64,000 bases of DNA, from contig JBJTRI010000033.1 of NCBI GenBank assembly GCA_046076045.1, forward strand, positions 745-64,744. The letters are read 5' to 3'. The translations under genes and the position numbers were made by a program. Source of the stretch: a bacterium (lineage in GTDB: Bacteria; Eisenbacteria; RBG-16-71-46). The number at the start of each line of letters is the position of its first letter. Position 1 is the stretch's first letter. Below are positions 849-25,100 of the stretch, one piece after another. The notes beneath the pieces are model-generated. The model had not been told where the DNA came from. It saw only the letters and a list, made by a program, of their open reading frames with translations, and did not search any database.

Positions 849-1202
849 ATGTTCGTGACCGATGCATTCGCGCAGGCGGCCGGAGCGGCGCCGGTGGACA
901 ACTCGCCCATGGCCCAGTTCTTCGCCGGGGGCCTCAGCTTCCCGGTCATGATGGCGCTCATGTTCGGCATCCTGTACTTCATGGTCATCCGTCCGCAGAA
1001 CGCCGAGCGCAAGAAGCTCCAGCAGCGCATCGACGCGCTCAAGAAGGGCGACTCGGTGCTCACCACGAGCGGCATCTTCGCCACCGTCGTGAGCGTGTCG
1101 GGCGACAGCCTCGTGCTGCGCATCTCCGAGGAGACCAAGGTGACGTTCGCCAAGAGCGCCGTGGCCCAGGTCCTCGAAGACAAGACGCCCAAGGCCAGCT
1201 GA
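849..1202 (+). CDS. yajC: Preprotein translocase subunit YajC
   Basis: ATG at 849. Single TM segment (FFAGGLSFPVMMALMFGILYFMVIRPQ) followed by the conserved KKLQQRIDALKKGDSVLTTSGIFATV motif typical of YajC. Confidence 0.85.
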   Translation: MFVTDAFAQAAGAAPVDNSPMAQFFAGGLSFPVMMALMFGILYFMVIRPQNAERKKLQQRIDALKKGDSVLTTSGIFATVVSVSGDSLVLRISEETKVTFAKSAVAQVLEDKTPKAS

Positions 1203-1762
1203 TGTCCGTCCGTGCCGTGCGCATCTGGGGGGACCCGGTCCTCCGCCAGCGGGCCAAGCCCGTCACCGCGTTCGACGACCCGCTCCGCGAGCTGGTCGCC
1301 GACCTGTTCGACACCATGAAGGTGTACGACGGCTGCGGTCTCGCCGCGCCGCAGGTCGGCGTGTCGCAGCGGCTGTTCGTGGTCGGTTTCGACGACGACG
1401 AGGGCCAGCCGCTGCGGTTGGTGGTGGTGAACCCGGAGCTCTCCGATCGCAAGGGCAAGGACTCCATGGAGGAGGGCTGCCTGTCAATCCCGCACCTGCG
1501 CGGATCGGTGGAGCGGCCCACGCGCGTGGTGCTGCGCGCGCAGGACGAGCACGGTCAGCCCTACGAGGTCGTGGCCGAGGGTTTCCTCGCACGCGTGCTG
1601 CAGCACGAGTACGACCACCTCGAGGGCGTGATGTTCCCCGATCGCATGTCCCCGCTGCGGCGCCAGTTCCTGCGCCGCGACCTCGACGCGCTCGCGCGTG
1701 GCGAGGTCCCCGAGGGCTATCACCCCGGCGAGCCGGATCCTTCGGGCGGGAGGAGCATCTGA
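1202..1762 (+). CDS. def: Peptide deformylase
   Basis: Start ATG overlaps the yajC stop (ATGA). Carries the three Def motifs: GCGLAAPQVG (GxGxAAxQ), EGCLSIP (EGCLS) and QHEYDHLEG (HExxH). Confidence 0.9.
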   Translation: MSVRAVRIWGDPVLRQRAKPVTAFDDPLRELVADLFDTMKVYDGCGLAAPQVGVSQRLFVVGFDDDEGQPLRLVVVNPELSDRKGKDSMEEGCLSIPHLRGSVERPTRVVLRAQDEHGQPYEVVAEGFLARVLQHEYDHLEGVMFPDRMSPLRRQFLRRDLDALARGEVPEGYHPGEPDPSGGRSI

Positions 1763-1773
1763 GCCGTCCCCGG

Positions 1774-2712
1774 GTGGTGTTCATGGGCACGCCGGCGTTC
1801 TCGGTGCCCGCGTTGCGCGCGGTCGCGGCCGCGTGCGACGTCGTCATGGTGGTGACGCAGCCCGACCGTCCGAGCGGACGCGGGCAGCGCACGCACGAGT
1901 CCGAGGTCGCGCGCGTCGCGCACGAGCTCGGGCTGCCCGTGATGCGCCCCGCCGACATGCGCGCGCCCGAGGTGCGCGACGCGCTCGCCGCGCTCGCGGC
2001 CGACGCGTTCGCGGTGGTGGCGTTCGGCGCCATCCTCACGCCCGAGGTGCTGGCGCTGCCGCGGTTCGGTTGCGTCAACCTGCACGGCTCGCTGCTGCCC
2101 GACTACCGCGGCGCCTCGCCTGTGCAACGGGCGCTGTGGGACGGCCACACCACGACCGGCGTGTGCACCATCCTCATGGACGAGGGGATCGACACCGGCG
2201 ACGTGCTCGCCTCGCGCACGGAGGCGATTCGCGACGACGACGATGCGGCTTCGCTGGCCGCGCGGTTGGCCGAGTCGGGCGGGCCGCTGCTCGCCGAGAG
2301 CGTGCTGGCGCTCGTTGCGGGGCGTGCCACGCGCACGCCGCAGGACCGCGCCGCGGGCAGCTACGCGCGCAAGTTGCGCAAGACGGATGGGATCGTGGAC
2401 TGGGCGTTGCCGGCCCGCACGGTGTGGGCGCGCGCGCGTGCCGTCACGCCGTGGCCGGGCGCGACCACCACGTTCCGCGGGCGGCGCGTGCTCCTCGTGC
2501 GCGCACTGCCGGAGGACGGTCCGGGCGGAGTGCCCGGGACACTGCTCGGCGTGGATGCCGGTGGGGTAGGGGTCGCGTGCGGCACGGGTGTGCTGCGCGT
2601 GACGAGGTTGAAGCCGGAGGGGCGCGCGGAACTCGACGCCGCCGAGTGGGCGCGAGGAGCGCGTATCCAGCCGGGTGAACGATTCGAGACCATCCAGGAG
2701 CCGACGACGTGA
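1774..2712 (+). CDS. fmt: Methionyl-tRNA formyltransferase
   Basis: MVFMGTPAFSVPAL N-terminus and NLHGSLLPDYRGASP (formyltransferase SLLP motif). Sits immediately downstream of def. Confidence 0.9.
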   Translation: MVFMGTPAFSVPALRAVAAACDVVMVVTQPDRPSGRGQRTHESEVARVAHELGLPVMRPADMRAPEVRDALAALAADAFAVVAFGAILTPEVLALPRFGCVNLHGSLLPDYRGASPVQRALWDGHTTTGVCTILMDEGIDTGDVLASRTEAIRDDDDAASLAARLAESGGPLLAESVLALVAGRATRTPQDRAAGSYARKLRKTDGIVDWALPARTVWARARAVTPWPGATTTFRGRRVLLVRALPEDGPGGVPGTLLGVDAGGVGVACGTGVLRVTRLKPEGRAELDAAEWARGARIQPGERFETIQEPTT

Positions 2713-4694
2713 CCAGTGATCGACGCAGCACCCCAAGACCGGGCCCCCGGCCCTCCCCGCGCCCCGGCGCACGCCCTCGCAGCGAGGGTGGCTTCGCGCC
2801 GCGTGGTCCGCGTACGGGTCCGCCGCGCGACGGTGGCTACGCGCCGCGTGGTCCGCGCACGGGGCCGCCGCGCGACGGTGGTTACGCGCCGCGTGGTCCG
2901 CGTACGGGCCCGCCGCGCGAGGGTGGCTACGCGCCGCGTGGTCCGCGTACGGGTCCGCCGCGCGACGGTGGTTACGCGCCGCGTGGCCCGCGTACGGGTC
3001 CGCCGCGCGAGGGTGGTTACGCGCCGCGTGGTCCGCGCACGGGTTCACCGCGCGAGGGTGGCTACGCGCCGCGTGGTCCGCGCACGGGCCCGCCGCGCGA
3101 GGGTGGCTTCCGGCCGCGCCCCGACGGGGGTGCGCGCAGCTTCGATCGGCCGCGTCCGTTCACGCGCGATGACGGTCAGGCCGGTGCCGAGAACCGTTCG
3201 AACCCGGCGTACCCGCGACCGGGCCGTACGCGCTATCGGCGTGACGGCACCGCTTCGCCGGCGGCTTCGGGTTGGGCTCGTCCGCAGGACGGGACGCGCG
3301 AGCGCCCGCACCGCGAGTCGCGTCCCGACCAGCGGTCGTGGCCGCCGGTGAGCACCGACGGTCCGTCGCTGCCGGCCGATCCGCGCGAGGCCGCGCTTCG
3401 CATCCTGCACGCCGTGGACACGCGCAGCGCGTTCAGCGACCGCCTTCTAGACGGCGCGCATGCGCGTCCGGGCGCCGACCCGCGCGACAAGGCGCTCCTC
3501 CACGAGCTCGTGAAGGGTTCGCTGCGCTGGCGTGGTCGTCTCGACGCCGCGCTCGATGCCCGCGTGCACGTCGGGCTCGCCAACACGCAGCCGTGGATCC
3601 GCAACATCCTGCGCCTCGGCGCCTACCAGATCCTGTTCCTCGACCGCGTGCCGGCGCACGCGGCCGTGGACGAGTCGGTGAAGCTGGCCCACAAGTACGC
3701 GCACCCCGGTGCGGCCGGACTCGTGAACAGCGTGCTGCGCCGTCTCGCCGAGGAGCGCGACACCATCCGCTGGCCCGAGGCCGACGACGCCGACGCGCTC
3801 GCGGTGTGGGGTTCGCACCCGCGTTGGATCGTCGAGCGCTGGCTCGAGCGCTTCGGGCCCGCCGAGACGCGCGCGCTGCTCGAGGCCGACAACCGCGCCG
3901 TCCCGACCGGGCTGCGCAACAACTCGCTGCGCCAGACGCGGGAGCAGCTCGTCGAGCTGCTCGCGCGCGAGGGTGTCGAGGCCCGCATCGGCACGCTCTC
4001 GCCCGACCTCGTGTGGGTCGAGGGTCATCACTCGCCGGGAGCGCTGCACTGCTTCCAGGCCGGCCTGTGCACCGCGCAGGACGAGAGCGAGGCGCTCGTC
4101 GCCCGCGTCGTCGCCCCGCGCAAGCACGATCGCGTGCTCGACCTGTGCGCGGCCCCCGGCGGCAAGAGCTCGCACCTCGCCGAGCTCATGGGCGACGAGG
4201 GCGAGATCTGGGCGATGGAGCGCGACCCGCACCGGGTCGAGACGCTCGAGGCCACGCTGTCCCGACTCGGCGTGCACTCCGTGCACGTCGCGCAGGGCGA
4301 CGGTCGCACCTACGAGTTCCCGATGCCGTTCGATCGCGCGCTCGTGGATGCCCCGTGCAGCGGCATGGGCGTGCTCGCACGCCGGGCCGACGCGCGCTGG
4401 CGCAAGGGCCCCGAGGTGCTGGCCGAGATGCCGCCCGTGCAGCTCGAGTTGCTGGCGGCCGCGGCGCGACACCTCGCCCCGGGTGGCACGCTGGTCTACA
4501 GCGTGTGCTCGTTCGAGCCCGAGGAGACCGACCACGTCATCGCGCGCTTCCTCGCGACGCACCCCGGCTGGACGCTCGAGAGCGTCGCGGACTCGGTGCC
4601 CGCGAGCGTCGTGACGCCCGAGGGCACCATGCGCGTGCTGCCGCACCTGCACGGTTGCGACGGTGCGTTCGCGGCGAGGTTGCGCAAGCCGTGA
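2709..4694 (+). CDS. rsmB: 16S rRNA (cytosine-C5)-methyltransferase RsmB/Sun: NusB-like and SAM-MTase domains preceded by a ~140-aa Gly/Pro/Arg-rich tandem-repeat N-terminal extension
   Basis: GTG start overlaps the fmt stop (GTGA). Has a NusB-like region (ALRILHAVDTRSAFSD), SAM motifs (LDLCAAPGGKSSHLAE, DAPCSGMGV) and the catalytic PCS/TLVYSVCS motif. def-fmt-rsmB order is conserved. Confidence 0.85.
   Translation: MTSDRRSTPRPGPRPSPRPGARPRSEGGFAPRGPRTGPPRDGGYAPRGPRTGPPRDGGYAPRGPRTGPPREGGYAPRGPRTGPPRDGGYAPRGPRTGPPREGGYAPRGPRTGSPREGGYAPRGPRTGPPREGGFRPRPDGGARSFDRPRPFTRDDGQAGAENRSNPAYPRPGRTRYRRDGTASPAASGWARPQDGTRERPHRESRPDQRSWPPVSTDGPSLPADPREAALRILHAVDTRSAFSDRLLDGAHARPGADPRDKALLHELVKGSLRWRGRLDAALDARVHVGLANTQPWIRNILRLGAYQILFLDRVPAHAAVDESVKLAHKYAHPGAAGLVNSVLRRLAEERDTIRWPEADDADALAVWGSHPRWIVERWLERFGPAETRALLEADNRAVPTGLRNNSLRQTREQLVELLAREGVEARIGTLSPDLVWVEGHHSPGALHCFQAGLCTAQDESEALVARVVAPRKHDRVLDLCAAPGGKSSHLAELMGDEGEIWAMERDPHRVETLEATLSRLGVHSVHVAQGDGRTYEFPMPFDRALVDAPCSGMGVLARRADARWRKGPEVLAEMPPVQLELLAAAARHLAPGGTLVYSVCSFEPEETDHVIARFLATHPGWTLESVADSVPASVVTPEGTMRVLPHLHGCDGAFAARLRKP
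2784..3120 (+). repeat. 42-bp tandem repeat, ~8 copies, encoding GG[YF]APRGPRTG[PS]PR[DE] units inside the rsmB 5' region
   Basis: Near-identical 42-nt units (cggtggctacgcgccgcgtggtccgcg[ct]acgggcccgccgcgcga) are visible directly in the sequence. Confidence 0.9.
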
Positions 4695-5551
4695 GCGACG
4701 AGCGGCCCGATCCGCAGGACGCCCCCGACGCTCGCGTCGCGGGGCCCGGCGGGGAGGGCGGGCCTGCGGACGGGGCCCCTGCGCCCGCGACCCCGGAGCC
4801 GCCCGCGCGGCCCGGGGTCGTGGCGCGCGCGCGGCGGGTGGCGCGCGACCTGTTCGTGACGGTCGGCCTGGTGGGAGCGGCGTTCGTGGTCGGGTTGCTG
4901 CTGTTCAACTTCGCCATCATGCCGCGGTTCGTGCACCACACCGCGGTCGTGCGCGTGCCCGACCTCGTGAACCTCACCTACGAGCAGGCCGAGCAGGTCG
5001 CGGTGCGCGGCGAGGTCACGCTGTCGCGCGCGGGCGAACGCTTCGATCCCGGCGTCGAGCGCGGCCGCATCGTGCAGCAGGACCCGCTGCCGGGCACCCC
5101 GGTGCGCGGTCGGGCGCGCATCGCGGTGGTCGTGAGTCTGGGCGAGGAGTTCAGCAGCGTGCCCGCGTTGCACGGCGAGCCGCGCCGCAGCGCCGAACTG
5201 CTGCTCGAGCGCGCCGGTCTGGTGCGCGGCGGCGTGACGCGCGTGCCGAGCGACGACGAGCCCGAGGGTGCGGTCGTCGCGACCGACCCGCCGGCCGAGA
5301 CCGTGCTGCCGCGCGGCGGCCGCGTCGCGTTGCTGGTGTCGTCGGGCCCCGGTGAGCAGGCGTTCGCGATGCCCGACCTCGTCGGGCGCGAGATCACGCG
5401 CGTCACGCGCCAGCTCGAGGGGCAGGGCTTCACCGTCATCGTGGCGTCGTCGGCGGTCGGTCCGATCGTGTCGCAGGAACCCGCCCCCGGGGCGCGCCTC
5501 ACGCGCGCCGAGACCATCACGCTGCGCGCGGGCAGTCGCGTGATACGCTGA
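4691..5551 (+). CDS. Membrane-anchored PASTA-domain protein (3 PASTA repeats, no kinase or transpeptidase domain)
   Basis: GTG overlaps the rsmB stop (GTGA). Has an N-terminal TM segment (LFVTVGLVGAAFVVGLLLFNF) followed by three ~65-aa PASTA-like repeats (VPDLVNLTYEQAEQ.., VPALHGEPRRSAEL.., MPDLVGREITRVTRQL..). Start assigned by frame continuity and codon bias. Confidence 0.7.
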   Translation: MSDERPDPQDAPDARVAGPGGEGGPADGAPAPATPEPPARPGVVARARRVARDLFVTVGLVGAAFVVGLLLFNFAIMPRFVHHTAVVRVPDLVNLTYEQAEQVAVRGEVTLSRAGERFDPGVERGRIVQQDPLPGTPVRGRARIAVVVSLGEEFSSVPALHGEPRRSAELLLERAGLVRGGVTRVPSDDEPEGAVVATDPPAETVLPRGGRVALLVSSGPGEQAFAMPDLVGREITRVTRQLEGQGFTVIVASSAVGPIVSQEPAPGARLTRAETITLRAGSRVIR

Positions 5552-7739: not shown

Positions 7740-8150
7740 ATGGCGGTCGTCATTCGCATGATGCGGGCCGGAGCCAAGAAGCGGCCCTTCTATCGGATCG
7801 TGGTGGCGGACTCGCGTCGTCAGCGCGACGGTCGTTTCGTCGAGATCCTGGGTTACTACGACCCGATGGCGAAGCCGTTCGCCGTGAAGATGGACGAGGA
7901 GAAGGTCAAGGCCTGGATCGCGCAGGGCGCGCAGCCCTCGACGCAGGCGGCCTCGCTGTTCCGTCGCGCCGGCATCATCGCCGCGCGTCCGAGCAAGCCG
8001 ACCTCGACCAAGAAGAAGGCCGCGGCCTCGGGTGCGAAGAAGAAGGCCGTCGCGCGCAAGCGTCCCCGCAAGGTGACGGAGCGCAAGGAGAAGGCCAAGG
8101 CGACGCGCGCGAAGCGCAAGGCCACGGCCAAGGCCAAGGCGAAGGCCTGA
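7740..8150 (+). CDS. rpsP: 30S ribosomal protein S16 with a Lys/Ala-rich C-terminal extension
   Basis: [42 protein letters not shown] is the canonical S16 core. SD AAGGAGA lies upstream. The C-terminal ~50 aa are [28 protein letters not shown]. Confidence 0.85.
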
Positions 8151-16714: not shown

Positions 16715-17895
16715 GCGCACGACCCGCGTTGGGGCTCGCGCTCGAGACCGCCACCGAGCGCGTCGGCGTGGCGGTGGTGGAGGCCTCCGGCGCCGTGCGG
16801 GCGACCCTCCACGAGGACGTGGGCCACGGGCACACGCGGCGGCTCACGCCCATAGTGGGCCACGTGCTGGCCGAGGCCGGCGTGACGGTGCGTGACCTCG
16901 CGTGGGTGGCGGCCGACGTCGGGCCGGGGTCGTTCACCGGCGTGCGCGTGGGACTGGCGACCGCGAGTGCGCTCGCCATGGTGGCGGGGGCGCGCCGACT
17001 CGGCGCTTCGAGCTTGAGTGCGCTCGCGCATGCGGCGGGCGGCCATCGGCAGTTGCTCGTGACGCTGGTCGGTGCGGGGCGGCGCGACCTGTACGCGGGC
17101 TTCCACCGCGTGGACGCGCGCGGGCGCGTGCACCTGATCGCCGCACCGCGCGTGGACACGCCCGCGGTCCTGCTCGGCGCGGTCGCCGAGTTGCACGCCG
17201 TGCTGCCCGACCACGCGGTGCGGTTCGTGGGGCCGGGCGCGGGGCGCGAGCGCGCCGTGTTCGAGGAGGCGTACCCCGGCAGCACCGCGGACGGCTTCCG
17301 GCACGACGGGTTGTCGGCGCTCGACCTCGCTGCGGTCGCGGTGCTCGACGCCGGTCCCGGTGCGGGCCTGCCCGCTCCCGGGCGCGAGTGCGAGCCGGTC
17401 TACGTGCGACCCGCGCAAGCCGAGGAGAAGGTGCGGCACCGCATCATGGGGCTCACCCCGCCGCTCGTGCGCGCCCTGCAACCGGCCGACCTGCCCGTGG
17501 TGGACGAACTCGAGCACCGGTTGTTCGGCGACCCGTGGCCGCAGCACTTCTTCCTCGACGCGCTCGCCGCTCCCGAGGCCGTCTGCCGCGTGGCCGAGCG
17601 CGGGGGCGAGGTGGCGGGCTACCTCGTGGCCACCGTGCTCGCACCCACCGCCGAGTTGCAGAACGTCGCCACCGCGCCCGAGCATCAGCGCGGCGGCGTC
17701 GCGCGCGCCCTGCTCGACGACCTCGTCGCGACCTGTCGCGCACGCGGCGTGCGCTCGATCGGGCTCGAGGTGCGGGCCTCGAACGCCGCCGCCCAGACCC
17801 TGTATCGTTCCTACGGCTTCCGCGTGAACGGTCTGCGGCGCGGCTACTACGAGTCGCCCGCGGAGGACGCCCTGCTCATGGAGTTCCCATGCTGA
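16708..17895 (+). CDS. tsaB: TsaB (YeaZ)::RimI fusion: N-terminal TsaB domain, C-terminal GNAT ribosomal-protein-alanine acetyltransferase domain
   Basis: GTG overlaps the tsaE stop. The N-terminal half matches TsaB (ALETATERVGVAVV.., GPGSFTGVRVGLA). The C-terminal half has GNAT motifs (VATAPEHQRGGVARALL, LEVRASNAAAQTLYRSYGF). Confidence 0.75.
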   Translation: MVSARPALGLALETATERVGVAVVEASGAVRATLHEDVGHGHTRRLTPIVGHVLAEAGVTVRDLAWVAADVGPGSFTGVRVGLATASALAMVAGARRLGASSLSALAHAAGGHRQLLVTLVGAGRRDLYAGFHRVDARGRVHLIAAPRVDTPAVLLGAVAELHAVLPDHAVRFVGPGAGRERAVFEEAYPGSTADGFRHDGLSALDLAAVAVLDAGPGAGLPAPGRECEPVYVRPAQAEEKVRHRIMGLTPPLVRALQPADLPVVDELEHRLFGDPWPQHFFLDALAAPEAVCRVAERGGEVAGYLVATVLAPTAELQNVATAPEHQRGGVARALLDDLVATCRARGVRSIGLEVRASNAAAQTLYRSYGFRVNGLRRGYYESPAEDALLMEFPC

Positions 17896-19730
17896 CGATC
17901 CGGTCGCGCGTACTCGCGCTCGTGTTGACGATCATGCCCATGCTGGGTGCGAGCCCGCTCGCGGCACAGCCCGTGCCCGACAGCACCCGAGCACGCATTC
18001 CCGCTTCTGCGCCCGCCGCGCTCGCACCTGCGCCCGCGCGCGGCGCGACCGTGCCCGCCCCTTCGCCCGCCACGCTCGCACCTGCACCTGCGCGCGACGC
18101 GCTAGCACCCATGCCCGAGGCGCTCGCACCTGCGCCTGCGTCCAACCTGCTCGTGTCCGACGACGACGGTCCGGTCGCGCGCCCGGAGCGGCCCATCCCG
18201 GTCTTCCTCGGTGGGCGCGAGTTGTTGTCGCTGCACGTCGGTCGGGACGGCATGGGGGTGCGCGACCGTGCGGAGGCCATCCGCGATCGTCTGGTGGTGG
18301 CGGTGGCCGACACCACGCTCGCCGCCTCCGACGTGCAGCTCGTGCCGCGCGCCAACGCGGTCGAGTTCCGGCTCGGGCGCCGACTGCTGTTCGTGCTCGT
18401 GCCCGAGGACCTGCCGCCGCTCGACCGCACCGAGACCGAGGCGTGGCTGCTGCGCCTCGCGCGCGAGGTGAGCGAGGGCATCGTGCGCGAGCGGGCCAGC
18501 CGGGAGCCGAGCGCCCGCCTCACGAGCATCGCGATCGGTGCGGCGTGGACGCTGGGCGCGTGGCTCCTCGCGCTCGCGGTGCTCGCGCTCGGGCGGCGTT
18601 GGCGCTGGTGGTTGCACACCGTGGTGTCGCCGCGCCTGCCCGCCATCCGCGTGCGCAGCACTGAGGTGCTGTCGCGTCGCCAACTCGGGTCCCTGCTGCT
18701 CGGCGTGCTCGGCCGAGCCGACCTGCCGGTGCTGCTCGTGCTGGCCTATACCTGGCTGACGACCGTGTTCGCCCGCTTCCCCGTCACCCAGTCGTGGAGT
18801 TGGGAGTTGCGGCGGTTCGCGGTCGAGCGCTCGTCGGAGCTCGTGCGGGTCGTGCTCGCCTCGCTGCCGGGACTGCTCACGGTCGTGTTCATCCTGTGGG
18901 TGTTCCGCGCCTTCATGCGGCTCTCGGACCGGTTCTTCGACCGCGTCGCGCGCGGCGCCACGACGCTGCCGGGCTTCCATCCCGAGCTCGCGGCCCCCAG
19001 CCGCCGACTCGCCCGCATCGTTCTGGGGCTGGCGGCGATCATCACCGCGTATCCCTACCTGCCGGGCGCGGAGTCCAAGGCCGTGCAGGGCATCTCGGTG
19101 CTCGTCGGCCTCATGGTGTCGCTGGGCTCGTCGGGCATCGTGGGCAACATGATCGCGGGCCTCGTGCTCACCTACTCGCGCAGCTTCAGCATCGGGGACC
19201 GCGTGCGCATCGGGGACCACGTCGGCGACGTCCTCTCGCTCGGCACGTTCGCGACCAAGCTGCGGAGCCTGCGCAACGAGGAGGTCACGCTGCCGAACGG
19301 CGCGATCCTCGCGGGCACCATCCTCAACTACACGCGGCGCACGGCGCAGGAGGGCGGGCTGTGGCTGCACACGCAGGTCACGATCGGCTACGACGCGCCG
19401 TGGCGGCAGGTGCACGCGCTCCTCATCGAGGCCGCGTGCTCGGTGCCCGGCGTCGAGTCGAGCCCCGAGCCCATCGTGTACCAGCGCGCGCTCAACGACT
19501 ATCACGTGAGCTACGAGATCACGTGCCTCACGCACGACTCGCACGCGCAACTCCGGCTCTACAGCGACCTGCATGCCGCCATCCAGGACGCGTTCGCGCG
19601 CGCCGGCGTCGAGATCCTGTCGCCGGCCTACGCCGCGCTGCGCGACGCGAACGCGCAGGTGCTGCCGTCCGAGCCCGCGGGGCCGCGTGAGATGCCCGGC
19701 GGCTTCCGGGTCCGGCGCCCCGGGGAGTGA
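17889..19730 (+). CDS. Mechanosensitive ion channel (MscS family) with a large N-terminal periplasmic/TM extension
   Basis: ATG at 17889 overlaps the tsaB::rimI stop by 7 nt. Signal peptide and several TM segments. MscS pore/beta domain: VLVGLMVSLGSSGIVGNMIAGLVLTYSRSFSIGDRVRIGDHVGDV. Confidence 0.75.
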   Translation: MLTIRSRVLALVLTIMPMLGASPLAAQPVPDSTRARIPASAPAALAPAPARGATVPAPSPATLAPAPARDALAPMPEALAPAPASNLLVSDDDGPVARPERPIPVFLGGRELLSLHVGRDGMGVRDRAEAIRDRLVVAVADTTLAASDVQLVPRANAVEFRLGRRLLFVLVPEDLPPLDRTETEAWLLRLAREVSEGIVRERASREPSARLTSIAIGAAWTLGAWLLALAVLALGRRWRWWLHTVVSPRLPAIRVRSTEVLSRRQLGSLLLGVLGRADLPVLLVLAYTWLTTVFARFPVTQSWSWELRRFAVERSSELVRVVLASLPGLLTVVFILWVFRAFMRLSDRFFDRVARGATTLPGFHPELAAPSRRLARIVLGLAAIITAYPYLPGAESKAVQGISVLVGLMVSLGSSGIVGNMIAGLVLTYSRSFSIGDRVRIGDHVGDVLSLGTFATKLRSLRNEEVTLPNGAILAGTILNYTRRTAQEGGLWLHTQVTIGYDAPWRQVHALLIEAACSVPGVESSPEPIVYQRALNDYHVSYEITCLTHDSHAQLRLYSDLHAAIQDAFARAGVEILSPAYAALRDANAQVLPSEPAGPREMPGGFRVRRPGE

Positions 19731-22140: not shown

Positions 22141-25100
22141 GCACGCTCCCACTGCTCGCGTTGCTGGTCGCCGTCGCCGCGCGGGGCGAGGTGCTCATCG
22201 TGCCCTCGCCAGCGCCCGACTCGGCGACGGTCGCATCCGACAGCACCGCGGCCGAGAGCACGCGCGTGGTCGTGCCGACCCCGGCGCCCGCGGTCGTGCC
22301 CGCGCCACGCGCCGCCGCACCGCGACCCGCGGTCGCGCCCGCCCCCGAGCCGCCGTACCGCATCGAGGCCGATCGCATGACCGGCGGCCGCGGGCCCACG
22401 GGTGACGTGCTGTACCTCGAGCAGGTCACCATCACGCGCGGGCGCACGCGCCTGCAGTCCGAGCGCGGGCGCTACGAGCGCGCCACCGGCATGGTGCACG
22501 TCGAGGGACGCGTGCGCATGCGCGACTCGAGCACCACCGTGACCTGCGACGAGGCATCGTTCTCGGAGACTCAGGACCGCCTCGACCTGCGCGGTAACGT
22601 GGTGGTGGTGGACCGCGAGGCACGCCTGCAGGCGCCCTTCGGGTGGTACGACCGGCGCAGCGGCAAGGCCCGCCTGCACGGCGGGGTGCGCGGACAGGAG
22701 CGCAAGCAGCGGTTGGTGGCGCGCGAGGCGTACTACGACCGCGACTCCTCCATGGTCATCGCGGTCGGCGACGTGATCGGCGACGACGACGAGAACCGCA
22801 CGCGCATCGAGGCGCAGCGCGTCGAGTACGACCGGCGCAGCAAGGTCGCGACCGCGACCGGCAGCCCGCTGTTGCGTGCCCGCGACGACGACGGGCACGA
22901 GACGCGGCTGCGCGCCCGCCTGCTGCGCGTCGGCTCCGAGAGCAAGGTCGCCGAGGCGCTGGACTCGGTCGAGGTCGAGCGCGACACGCTGCGCGCGCGC
23001 GCCGACTACGCACGCTTCGACGATGCGCTCGGACGCGGGCTCCTGCTGGGTTCGCCGCGGGCGTGGGACGGCGAGACCACGATCTCCGGCGACACGCTCG
23101 AGACCGTGGGGCGCGACCGCAAGCTCGACCGCATCCTCGTGCGCGGGCGCGCGGGCATCGACTACGCCGGCGCACGCGAGGGCACGCGCGGCGACCGCAG
23201 CCGGCTCACGGGCGAGCAGGTCGAGATGTACGTCACGGGCTCGCGCATCGACAGCCTCGTGGCGACCGGGCAGGCGCGCAACACCTACACGGCCGCGGCC
23301 AAGCCCGGCAAGACCGCCGAGGACAACCGCGCCGAGGGCGACACCATCCTGGTGTTCTTCAAGGACAAGCGCATCGACCGCGCCCGCGTCGTGGGCGGCG
23401 CGACCGGCGCCTACCGACCGCCGGTCGCGGTCGACGACACCACGGCGGCCCGCCTCGAGCGCATCACCTACGAGGCCGCCGGCATCGTGTTCGAGATCCC
23501 GCGCAACCGCATCGTGCTCGACGGTCAGGCCAAGCTGCTGTACCGCGACCTCGAGCTGAGCGCGCGCCGCGTCGAGTTCGACAGTCGCCGCAACACGCTG
23601 GTGGCCGAGGGGCAGCCGTCGCTGGTCGAGAAGGGCGACGAGGTCGAGGGTCAGCTCATGACCTACGACATGGAGCGGCAGGTCGGCACCATCTACCAGG
23701 CCACCACGCAGTACGAGCGCGGGCTCTACCACGGCAAGCGCATCCGCAAGGTGAGCGAGCGCGAGCTCGACGTGCTCGGCGGCTCGTACAGCACCTGCGA
23801 CCTCGCCGAGCCGCACTACCACTTCTCGGCGCGTTGGATGAAGATCTACCTCAAGGACAAGCTGGTCGCGAAGCCGGTCGTGTTCTACCTGCGCAACGTC
23901 CCCGTGCTCGCGCTGCCGTTCTACGTGTTCCCGATCAAGCCCGGGCGGCACTCCGGATTCCTGTTCCCGCAGTTCGAGTTCGGGTTCAACAGCGCGAGCG
24001 GGCAGTTCATCCGCAACGCCGGCTACTACTGGGCCCCCAACGACTACTTCGACTTCACCGGCGCCGGCGACTACTACGCGGCCGATCCGTCGTGGCTGCT
24101 GCGGGGCGAGCTCAACTACAAGCTGCTCTACCGCTTCGAGGGCCGCGCCGACGTGAAGTTCGGGCACGACGAGCGCACCGGGCGCGACGACTACACGTTC
24201 TCGGGCACCCACCAGCAGACGCTCGGTCAGCGTACGCGCCTGTCGGCGCTCGGCAACTTCACCTCGAGTCGCGACTTCAGCACGAGCGGCCAGTCGGGGC
24301 AGTCGTTCCAGCAGCGCTTCGACCGGTTCCTCAACTCGAACCTGCAGCTCACGCACTACGCCGACGGGTTGTCGCTGAGCGCGATCCTCGACCGGCGCCA
24401 GGACCTCGACGCCGACGACGACCTCATCGGCCCGACCGGCAACCTGCTGCCCGTGGGCACGGTCGGCCGCCCCAGCCTGACCGTGTACGAGCCCTCGCTC
24501 GCGGTCTCGCTGCCGCAGCGCACGTTGGGTTCGTACGGCCTCATCAAGGACAACGCGGTCGGGCGCGCGCTCAAGAACACCTACCTGAGCCTCAACGCGC
24601 GCTACCTCGGCTACCGCACCGAGCGGGCGTTCGTCGAGGGCGTGTACGACACGGCCGGGGTGCTCGCCGGCTCGCGCATCGGTCGGCAGCGCGAGACGCG
24701 GCGCGCGGCGACCTCGCAGTTCTCGCTCTCGGACTCGCGCCGCTTGCTGGGCTGGATCAACTTCTCGCCGTCGGTGTTCGGCAACGCGGTGGTATTCGAT
24801 CGCGACGAGCAGGGCAACACCGTCGTGCCGGCCGCGGTCTGGCAGTCGGGCGTCGGCGTCTCGACCACGCTGTACCGCACGCTGTCCACGCCCATCGAGG
24901 GGCTCGCGTTGCGGCACGTCGTGAGTCCGAGCGTGCAGATCTCGTACTCGCCCGACTTCCCCGGGCTGTCGTACACCGACGAGAACGGCATCCTGCGCCC
25001 GCGCTTCAAGGGCTTCGCCGACGTCAACCTGACCTCGGGCGCGCGCTCCACGGTGGGCTCGTTCACGCTGGACCAGCGCCTGCAGGCCAAGCTCACGCGC

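Follow-up and report, generated by a model that had tools for sequence, protein, structure and literature searches.

A partly repeat-encoded, arginine-rich and predicted disordered N-terminal arm on the rRNA methyltransferase RsmB of Candidatus Eisenbacteria

A tandem array of seven full 45-bp units lies near one end of a 64,000-nucleotide stretch of Eisenbacteria DNA (contig JBJTRI010000033.1; hereafter the window), inside a continuous open reading frame (ORF; 2709–4694, forward strand) of 661 amino acids (aa) that is rsmB. With moderate confidence, we regard this array as the repetitive centre of a translated, disordered and cationic N-terminal arm that is carried by RsmB throughout the lineage and would serve as an RNA tether. 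The arm is the rule for Eisenbacteria RsmB and its repeats are constrained like the core, so that the orthologues form a natural series with one composition, many repeat designs and one fixed motif.

The repeat array and the protein that carries it

Tandem Repeats Finder (TRF) places the array at 2782–3108 with a period of 45, 7.3 copies, 92% matches, no indels and a score of 542; the second-ranked array in the window scores only 113, and the highest score over 200 codon shuffles of the arm was 94. A first-pass annotation, made from the sequence alone, had described eight 42-bp units at 2784–3120 and proposed TRF as the check, which returned a strong array at these coordinates, within the N-terminal extension of RsmB. 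The array, its coordinates and its peptide unit stand, but the period is 45 bp, as the 15-residue unit given in that annotation itself implies, and seven units are complete, the count of eight being the number of GG[F/Y] starts. The units are 89–98% identical in DNA sequence (1–5 differences per 45 nt) and the longest exact repeat inside the array is 42 nt. Only eight of the 45 columns vary, six of them third codon positions, and residue changes are limited to D/E, one F/Y and one P/S. No RNA family was matched in an Rfam scan of the whole window; the array is therefore not a known RNA element.

The RsmB core is placed at aa 224–660 by Pfam and NCBIfam, and comprises a NusB-like domain (PF01029, aa 225–347, E = 7.2e-31), an RsmF/B ferredoxin-like domain (Pfam, aa 370–438) and an RsmB/F S-adenosylmethionine-dependent methyltransferase domain (PF01189, aa 467–659, E = 1.2e-56). 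The protein passes both RsmB equivalog cut-offs (NF011494, 382.5 bits against 319; TIGR00563, 343.1 against 269.05). Its translation contains the methyltransferase motifs VDAPCSGMG and YSVCSFEPEE, and P549, C550, S551, G552 and C600 are invariant across 26 orthologues; the catalytic cysteine motifs of RsmB/F are the PC of DAPCSG and the second cysteine in motif VI. Judged by these profile and motif matches, the window protein is RsmB, the predicted 16S rRNA m5C967 methyltransferase.

The features that define the true start of the gene recur in relatives. In 8/8 related loci that have upstream DNA, a GGAG stands at equal spacing, the start overlaps the fmt stop as GTGA and the N-terminal peptide is similar. 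The N-terminal pattern V/M-[TS]-x-[DE]-R-R is kept in relatives, where those gene calls with an ATG start open with MSTDRRST, MSTERRST or MTTERRST, and neither promoter-like nor terminator-like sites were found between fmt and the core. The SDRRS at the N-terminus was considered as a twin-arginine translocation (Tat) signal and ruled out, as no hydrophobic segment follows it. Two overlapping ORFs, 2716–3351 on the forward strand and 1720–3048 on the reverse strand, were likewise rejected: both are typical open frames of high-GC DNA, and the substitutions, between units as well as between genomes, hit third codon positions when read in the RsmB frame.

Translation of and selection on the arm

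Among the species-representative genomes, the nearest to the window is L001, a Candidatus Eisenbacteria metagenome-assembled genome from another study, with DNA identity to the window of 94.9% in fmt and 94.6% in the rsmB core. Its array is collinear with that of the window: all seven full units recur in unchanged order, accompanied by two additional partial units, each 21 bp long and in frame. In Nei-Gojobori counts between the two genomes, the repeats have 23 synonymous and 4 non-synonymous substitutions (synonymous divergence, dS, 0.29; ratio of non-synonymous to synonymous divergence, dN/dS, 0.064), the remaining arm 17 and 7 (dS 0.30; dN/dS 0.129) and the catalytic core 58 and 11 (dS 0.20; dN/dS 0.058). 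The repeat peptide is thus constrained as strictly as the catalytic core. Because seven units are collinear and the dS of the repeats is at least that of the core, the array predates the split between the window and L001, and its presence in an independent assembly argues against an artefact.

Repeat periods in other genomes keep the reading frame. In the arms of 15 related loci, all strong arrays detected by TRF have periods divisible by 3 (15–210 bp), and periods not divisible by 3 appear only in rows scoring at most 63. On this evolutionary evidence, the arm (aa 1–223) is coding sequence under constraint.

Two further observations concern the same region. At ∼3700–3720 of L001, corresponding to window positions 3354–3419, the NusB-like domain lacks its first 22 codons (DGPSLPADPREAALRILHAVD) and with them the first helix, which may reflect either a true deletion or faulty assembly. 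GC content at third codon positions (GC3) is 0.70 in the window repeat versus 0.93 in the core, and all 12 of 12 loci tested have a lower arm GC3 (0.65–0.78) than core GC3 (0.84–0.94), with CGT and GGT codons enriched 2–6 fold.

Composition and predicted disorder

The arm contains 46 Arg and 0 Lys, 49 Pro, 41 Gly, 8 Tyr and 4 Phe, for a net charge of +26; each repeat unit carries a charge of +2, with three Arg and one Tyr spaced by Pro and Gly. In an AlphaFold2 model built with 26 orthologues, aa 1–217 score below 50 in the predicted local distance difference test (pLDDT) and are almost devoid of secondary structure, beside a confident core; all that DSSP marks in these residues is a pair of beta-bridges at 176 and 182, each isolated and one residue long. 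The arm is accordingly modelled, and predicted, as disordered, and has the features of a disordered cationic low-complexity extension that flanks a folded, RNA-acting core. The Gly/Pro/Arg/Tyr-rich low-complexity arm recognized by the first-pass annotation is indeed what the array encodes, with its disorder predicted by AlphaFold2.

A further likeness drawn there, to RGG/RG segments, did not hold. RGG/RG boxes are defined by di- or tri-RGG or RG repeats spaced at most 4 residues apart. The window arm has no RGG tripeptide and no di-/tri-RGG or di-/tri-RG box, and its seven RG dipeptides are spaced 15 residues apart. The dominant dipeptides are instead PR (28) and RP (12), and an aromatic-x-Pro-Arg pattern occurs 8 times. 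In 16 other orthologue arms there is again no di-/tri-RGG; closely spaced RG pairs are found in seven and a tri-RG in two.

The same genome offers a comparison for the chemistry of the arm. The S16 gene (7740–8150, forward strand) encodes 136 aa, with a Pfam S16 domain at aa 9–67 followed by a 69-residue Lys/Ala-rich tail ending AKAKAKA. This tail gives the genome another basic and disordered appendage on a component of the ribosome, built on Lys rather than Arg. As a Lys-rich tail is made by the same genome, the Arg-only chemistry of the arm is not forced by GC content and looks chosen rather than GC-imposed.

Distribution of the arm and a conserved motif within it

Named relatives of the window RsmB are almost all from Candidatus Eisenbacteria. 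Orthologues in this group are generally armed, with arm lengths of ∼80–450 aa, and those of 600–888 aa have arms of differing tandem units (REGYKPREGYAPRGRATSAP, PRFERARPERSHGER, GDAPRGRSFDRAPRS, EGGGGYNRGPRP, GGDRAPRPY and REGGFAPRREGGFSPRPSGG). When the DNA is read from stop to stop, open arms of 200–520 codons are found at every locus with upstream sequence, and eight contigs end within the arm. Among arms no shorter than 120 aa, 44 in all, composition is near constant (R 0.22, K 0.01, G 0.16, P 0.16, D+E 0.12, aromatic 0.04), with a net charge of +0.11 per residue. The repeat design is not: locus L031 has a core 87% identical to that of the window and an arm of ∼390 aa built of a 26-residue unit. 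On the sequences compared, the arm is a general feature of Eisenbacteria RsmB. The orthologue comparison proposed in the first-pass annotation found Arg-rich N-terminal arms on related Eisenbacteria proteins but RGG boxes in none of the 16 tested.

Outside the group such arms are rare, and the earlier view that the extension is unusual for RsmB was borne out. In ∼140 of the best 150 RsmB representatives (50%-identity clusters), the core begins within the first ∼35 residues, with no arm. The arms of the few exceptions are basic, with a composition that follows the genome (P0128 is R/P/S/D-rich, P0219 K/A/P-rich and P0240 N/K-rich).

Within the variable arm, one motif is conserved across the phylum and a second patch in a subclade (Table 1). 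The alignment columns of Q157, A160, N162, R163, S164 and Y168 are invariant or near-invariant among orthologues, and the motif was found in 79 proteins, 55–100 residues ahead of the core. A look-alike, PVNRSKP, occurs in the Lys-rich arm of P0219, an unrelated N-extended RsmB. There is no sign in the AlphaFold2 model that the motif folds onto the core (motif pLDDT 31–37). It is a putative docking element, and probably engages a specific partner.

Tempo of repeat change

Near-identity of the units had been taken to imply recent expansion or ongoing slippage. This is not borne out, given the collinearity of seven units with those of L001, a different species-level genome, and a dS that is 0.29 in the repeats and 0.20 in the core, with a repeat dN/dS of 0.064. 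The accompanying suggestion of a contingency locus is likewise unsupported: with a period of 45 bp (15 codons) and an array internal to the ORF, switching by frameshift is impossible, and the two indels seen are in-frame 21-bp pieces. Copy-number variation, suggested as possible between strains, holds in the form of slower turnover between lineages. The window and L001 both have seven full units, whereas L012 and L013, with cores 97.0% identical in DNA sequence, have arms that differ by 75 aa in whole-unit blocks (28 versus 22 RGPR units); this difference may be real turnover or the collapse of a short-read assembly.

On average, two units of one genome are 3.5 apart, positional orthologues 3.9 and non-orthologous units of different genomes 4.3, so that concerted evolution is only weakly indicated; several unit variants are common to neighbouring units of one genome. 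A degenerate-DNA scan of Joint Genome Institute (JGI) metagenome contigs for the exact unit GGYAPRGPRTGPPR gave 0 matches. The picture is one of in-frame repeats that are slowly gained and lost under selection, and not of a locus that switches rapidly.

Gene neighbourhood, annotation and assembly

The features of the locus are collected in Table 1.

Table 1. Features of the rsmB locus in the window
Feature	Position	Strand	Remarks
def	1202–1762		upstream of fmt; def-fmt-rsmB gene string
fmt (methionyl-tRNA formyltransferase)	1774–2712	+	Pfam Formyl_trans_N/C; TGA stop 2710–2712 overlaps rsmB GTG
Shine-Dalgarno AGGAG	2696–2700	+	8 nt before GTG start; read from sequence
rsmB true start GTG	2709–2711	+	GTGA overlap with fmt stop
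Arm leader, aa 1–25, VTSDRRSTPRPGPRPSPRPGARPRS	2709–2783	+	resembles MSTDRRST/MSTERRST N-termini of P0003–P0010
Tandem array, seven full 45-bp units	2784–3098	+	encode [E/D]GG[Y/F]APRGPRTG[P/S]PR; TRF and codon-register dissection
Degenerate eighth unit start, EGGFRPRP	3099–3122	+	closes array; TRF array end is 3108
Phylum-conserved motif, window variant GQAGAENRSNPAY, aa 156–168	3174–3212	+	consensus GQxGA[VI]NRSRPxY
Second conserved patch, RYRRDGTASP	3231–3260	+	subclade consensus [VT]R[WY]RRDGKPSP
Internal GTG, start in identical NCBI record (P0001)	3348–3350	+	probably not real start; no Shine-Dalgarno-like purine run upstream
RsmB catalytic core and stop codon	3378–4694	+	Pfam, NCBIfam, confident AlphaFold2 fold

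Public records give a biased view of Eisenbacteria RsmB, in which the arm is often missed, mis-called or broken. The NCBI protein of identical sequence, P0001, has 448 aa and begins with MSTDGPS, at aa 214 of the ORF, so that the whole arm is omitted. At L031, a spurious 355-aa ORF in another frame and with no Pfam match (1937–3004) is called across the arm, and the RsmB call is truncated, beginning at the V of AVNRSRP. The 5' ends of contigs L002, L003, L004, L006, L008, L009, L012, L025, L032 and L033 lie inside or just after the arm, as expected if tandem repeats disrupt assembly from short reads; databases consequently understate both the length of the arms and their copy numbers.

Downstream of rsmB, a gene at 4691–5551 (forward strand) that overlaps the rsmB stop codes for a protein anchored in the membrane and containing three PASTA domains, and the order rsmB-PASTA-rpe-ffh is common to the window, L031, L032 and L033. 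A second coding tandem repeat (18007–18136, forward strand; period 27, 3.8 copies) lies within an MscS-type channel gene (∼17892–19730), where it encodes an Ala/Pro-rich linker (LAPAPARGATVPAPSPATLAPAPARDALAP) after a signal-like N-terminus. TRF also gives rows at 22259–22361, with periods of 24 and 38 and scores of 54 and 113.

Proposed role of the arm and alternative explanations

A possible link to RNA comes from the peptide unit itself. A pattern scan of species-representative genomes, blind to function, returned five non-RsmB proteins that contain EGG[FY]APRG: three DEAD-box helicases, one IF2 and one SpoU-type methyltransferase. The helicases, two from Bordetella ansorpii (L026, L027) and one from a gammaproteobacterium (L030), carry REGG[FY]APRG in tandem repeats in their C-terminal tails; the IF2 is proteobacterial (L028) and contains PPRREGGFAPRGDRPQGDRP in its N-terminal region; and in the SpoU-type rRNA methyltransferase, from Fibrobacterota, the peptide is in an N-terminal arm. 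All five act on RNA or the ribosome, which makes an RNA-binding role, as proposed in the first-pass annotation, plausible. The rare arms on RsmB of other lineages are also basic whatever the genome composition, as in the K-rich P0219 and the N/K-rich P0240.

The arm most likely acts, by analogy, as a multivalent, sequence-unspecific rRNA-binding tether or chaperone. The NusB-like domain is the RNA-binding domain in Escherichia coli RsmB. Placed directly ahead of this domain, the arm would provide a multivalent tether that increases the capture of naked or nascent 16S rRNA and of early pre-30S particles. Chaperoning of RNA folding, or enrichment of the enzyme at sites of ribosome assembly, may be further functions. 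Within a lineage, in-frame duplications of units, whole or partial, would lengthen the arm, and purifying selection would then hold it; between lineages, units would be replaced while composition, N-terminal peptide and the motif GQxGAVNRSRPxY stay fixed, the motif being a separate docking element.

Several points weigh against this reading. The peptide association is a small sample of five loci from one peptide pattern, and a protein search that used only the array as query yielded 25 candidates sharing words with it, none of them significant. Canonical RGG/RG boxes are missing from the arm. Its translation is inferred from evolution rather than from peptides, and the NCBI record for the identical protein starts downstream of it. 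Finally, dN/dS is higher (0.13) in the non-repeat parts of the arm and whole sets of units are exchanged even where cores are 87% identical (L031), which implies that exact sequence matters little and would be seen likewise in a weakly selected spacer.

Of the other explanations, the least improbable, though still unlikely, is that the arm is a protein–protein or localisation scaffold, directed to RNA polymerase, the rrn antitermination complex, a ribosomal protein, the nucleoid or the membrane, with RNA binding secondary. Proline-rich extended segments often bind proteins, which lends this some support, as does the conservation of the linear motif within a disordered region. The disordered region of the helicase RhlE2 also binds RNase E (PMC11260450). 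The bulk of the arm, however, consists of variable polycationic repeats, not motifs, the sequence names no partner, and RNA is the common denominator of the helicases, IF2 and SpoU methyltransferase that carry the peptide unit. It is also unlikely that the arm is low-complexity filler with no specific function, a tolerated by-product of slippage at a permissive N-terminus in a very GC-rich genome. The near-constant composition over 44 orthologues, the presence of the arm in every orthologue with upstream DNA, the motif conserved within it, a repeat dN/dS as low as that of the catalytic core and the near-absence of Lys in a genome that makes the Lys-rich S16 tail all speak against filler, even though units differ wholly between lineages (at 87% core identity in L031), arm length varies ∼80–450 aa, copy number differs between L012 and L013 at 97% core DNA identity, and Arg, Gly, Pro and Ala codons are GC-rich.

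The two remaining explanations are strongly disfavoured. A contingency (hypervariable) locus, in which frequent slippage alters the expression or properties of RsmB between strains, would fit the near-identical units with their 42-nt exact repeat, the two partial-unit indels between the window and L001, and the difference of about six units between L012 and L013. We consider it very improbable given that slippage by 15 codons causes no frame shift, that the seven full units are retained in unchanged order between the window and L001 despite a repeat dS of 0.29, that the repeats are under purifying selection and that the unit is in no other public metagenome contig scanned. Hardly credible is the idea that the extension is not protein at all, with GTG 3348 the correct start and the array a non-coding spacer or assembly artefact. 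The 448-aa NCBI product, the lower GC3 of the repeat and the many related contigs that break in the arm region would agree with it; synonymous-dominated substitutions that fit the RsmB frame, in-frame indels and periods in multiples of 3 in 15 loci, the conserved Shine-Dalgarno, GTGA overlap and N-terminal peptide, the collinear array in the independent L001 assembly, and the lack of any terminator or promoter found between fmt and the core do not. A constrained, cationic arm that would tether RsmB to RNA remains the reading we favour.

Comparison with known systems

The best solved-structure match to the window RsmB is PDB 1SQF (E = 5.8e-56), and E. coli RsmB/Fmu (Sun; 1SQF/1SQG) shares the three-part core of NusB-like, ferredoxin-like and RsmB/F methyltransferase domains. 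The E. coli gene order is also def-fmt-rsmB. At 429 aa, however, E. coli RsmB has no N-terminal arm, whereas the window protein has 223 extra, predicted-disordered residues before the NusB-like domain. Our literature search on RsmB with an N-terminal or disordered extension returned nothing relevant; the enzyme itself is well known, but we found no description of the basic, disordered arm that it carries across this lineage.

Several bacterial proteins, among them helicases, RNase E, Rho and IF2, are known to have basic tails that are disordered. The C-terminal tails of RhlE-type DEAD-box helicases are, like the arm, basic, Gly/Arg/aromatic-rich, repetitive and disordered, but they contain Lys, more Phe and Gly and less Pro, and the window arm is N-terminal and on a methyltransferase. 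With the array-only search, no homology between the two was demonstrable beyond the short peptide. The N-terminal region of bacterial IF2 is likewise of variable length, Pro/Arg/Gly-rich and repetitive and is part of a ribosome-binding factor, but a GTPase. In eukaryotes, the RsmB homologue Nop2/NSUN1 has a homologous m5C core, and its alignment starts at about residue 230–274 in pre-60S structures, leaving a long N-terminal extension. Its target is 25S/28S rRNA, no NusB-like domain aligns and the extension is of independent origin.

The Eisenbacteria RsmB arm parallels the glycine/arginine-rich (GAR) domain of fibrillarin, a eukaryotic rRNA methyltransferase that gained an N-terminal Gly/Arg-rich domain missing in its archaeal counterpart (PMC7194090). 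Both are N-terminal disordered arms on an rRNA methyltransferase with aromatics spaced between Arg, although fibrillarin belongs to the 2'-O-methyltransferase family, unlike the window RsmB. In the GAR domain, RGG/RG repeats number more than 10 and lie close together, with mostly Phe between them (PMC9957100), whereas in the window arm, with 0 RGG and 7 RG, Pro is the most abundant residue and the spacers are Pro/Gly/Thr/Ala/Tyr-rich 15-mers. It is conceivable, though improbable, that the arm is a bacterial counterpart of the eukaryotic nucleolar arrangement, independently evolved, in which it gathers RsmB into a condensate driven by RNA, or onto the rrn operon during transcription, while the motif docks an assembly or antitermination partner; if so, the arm would organise co-transcriptional 30S biogenesis, beyond a simple affinity booster. 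Short of this, the series of arms offers a test bed for how sequence-unspecific Arg/Pro/Gly/Tyr arms aid rRNA enzymes, in parallel with the GAR domain of fibrillarin.

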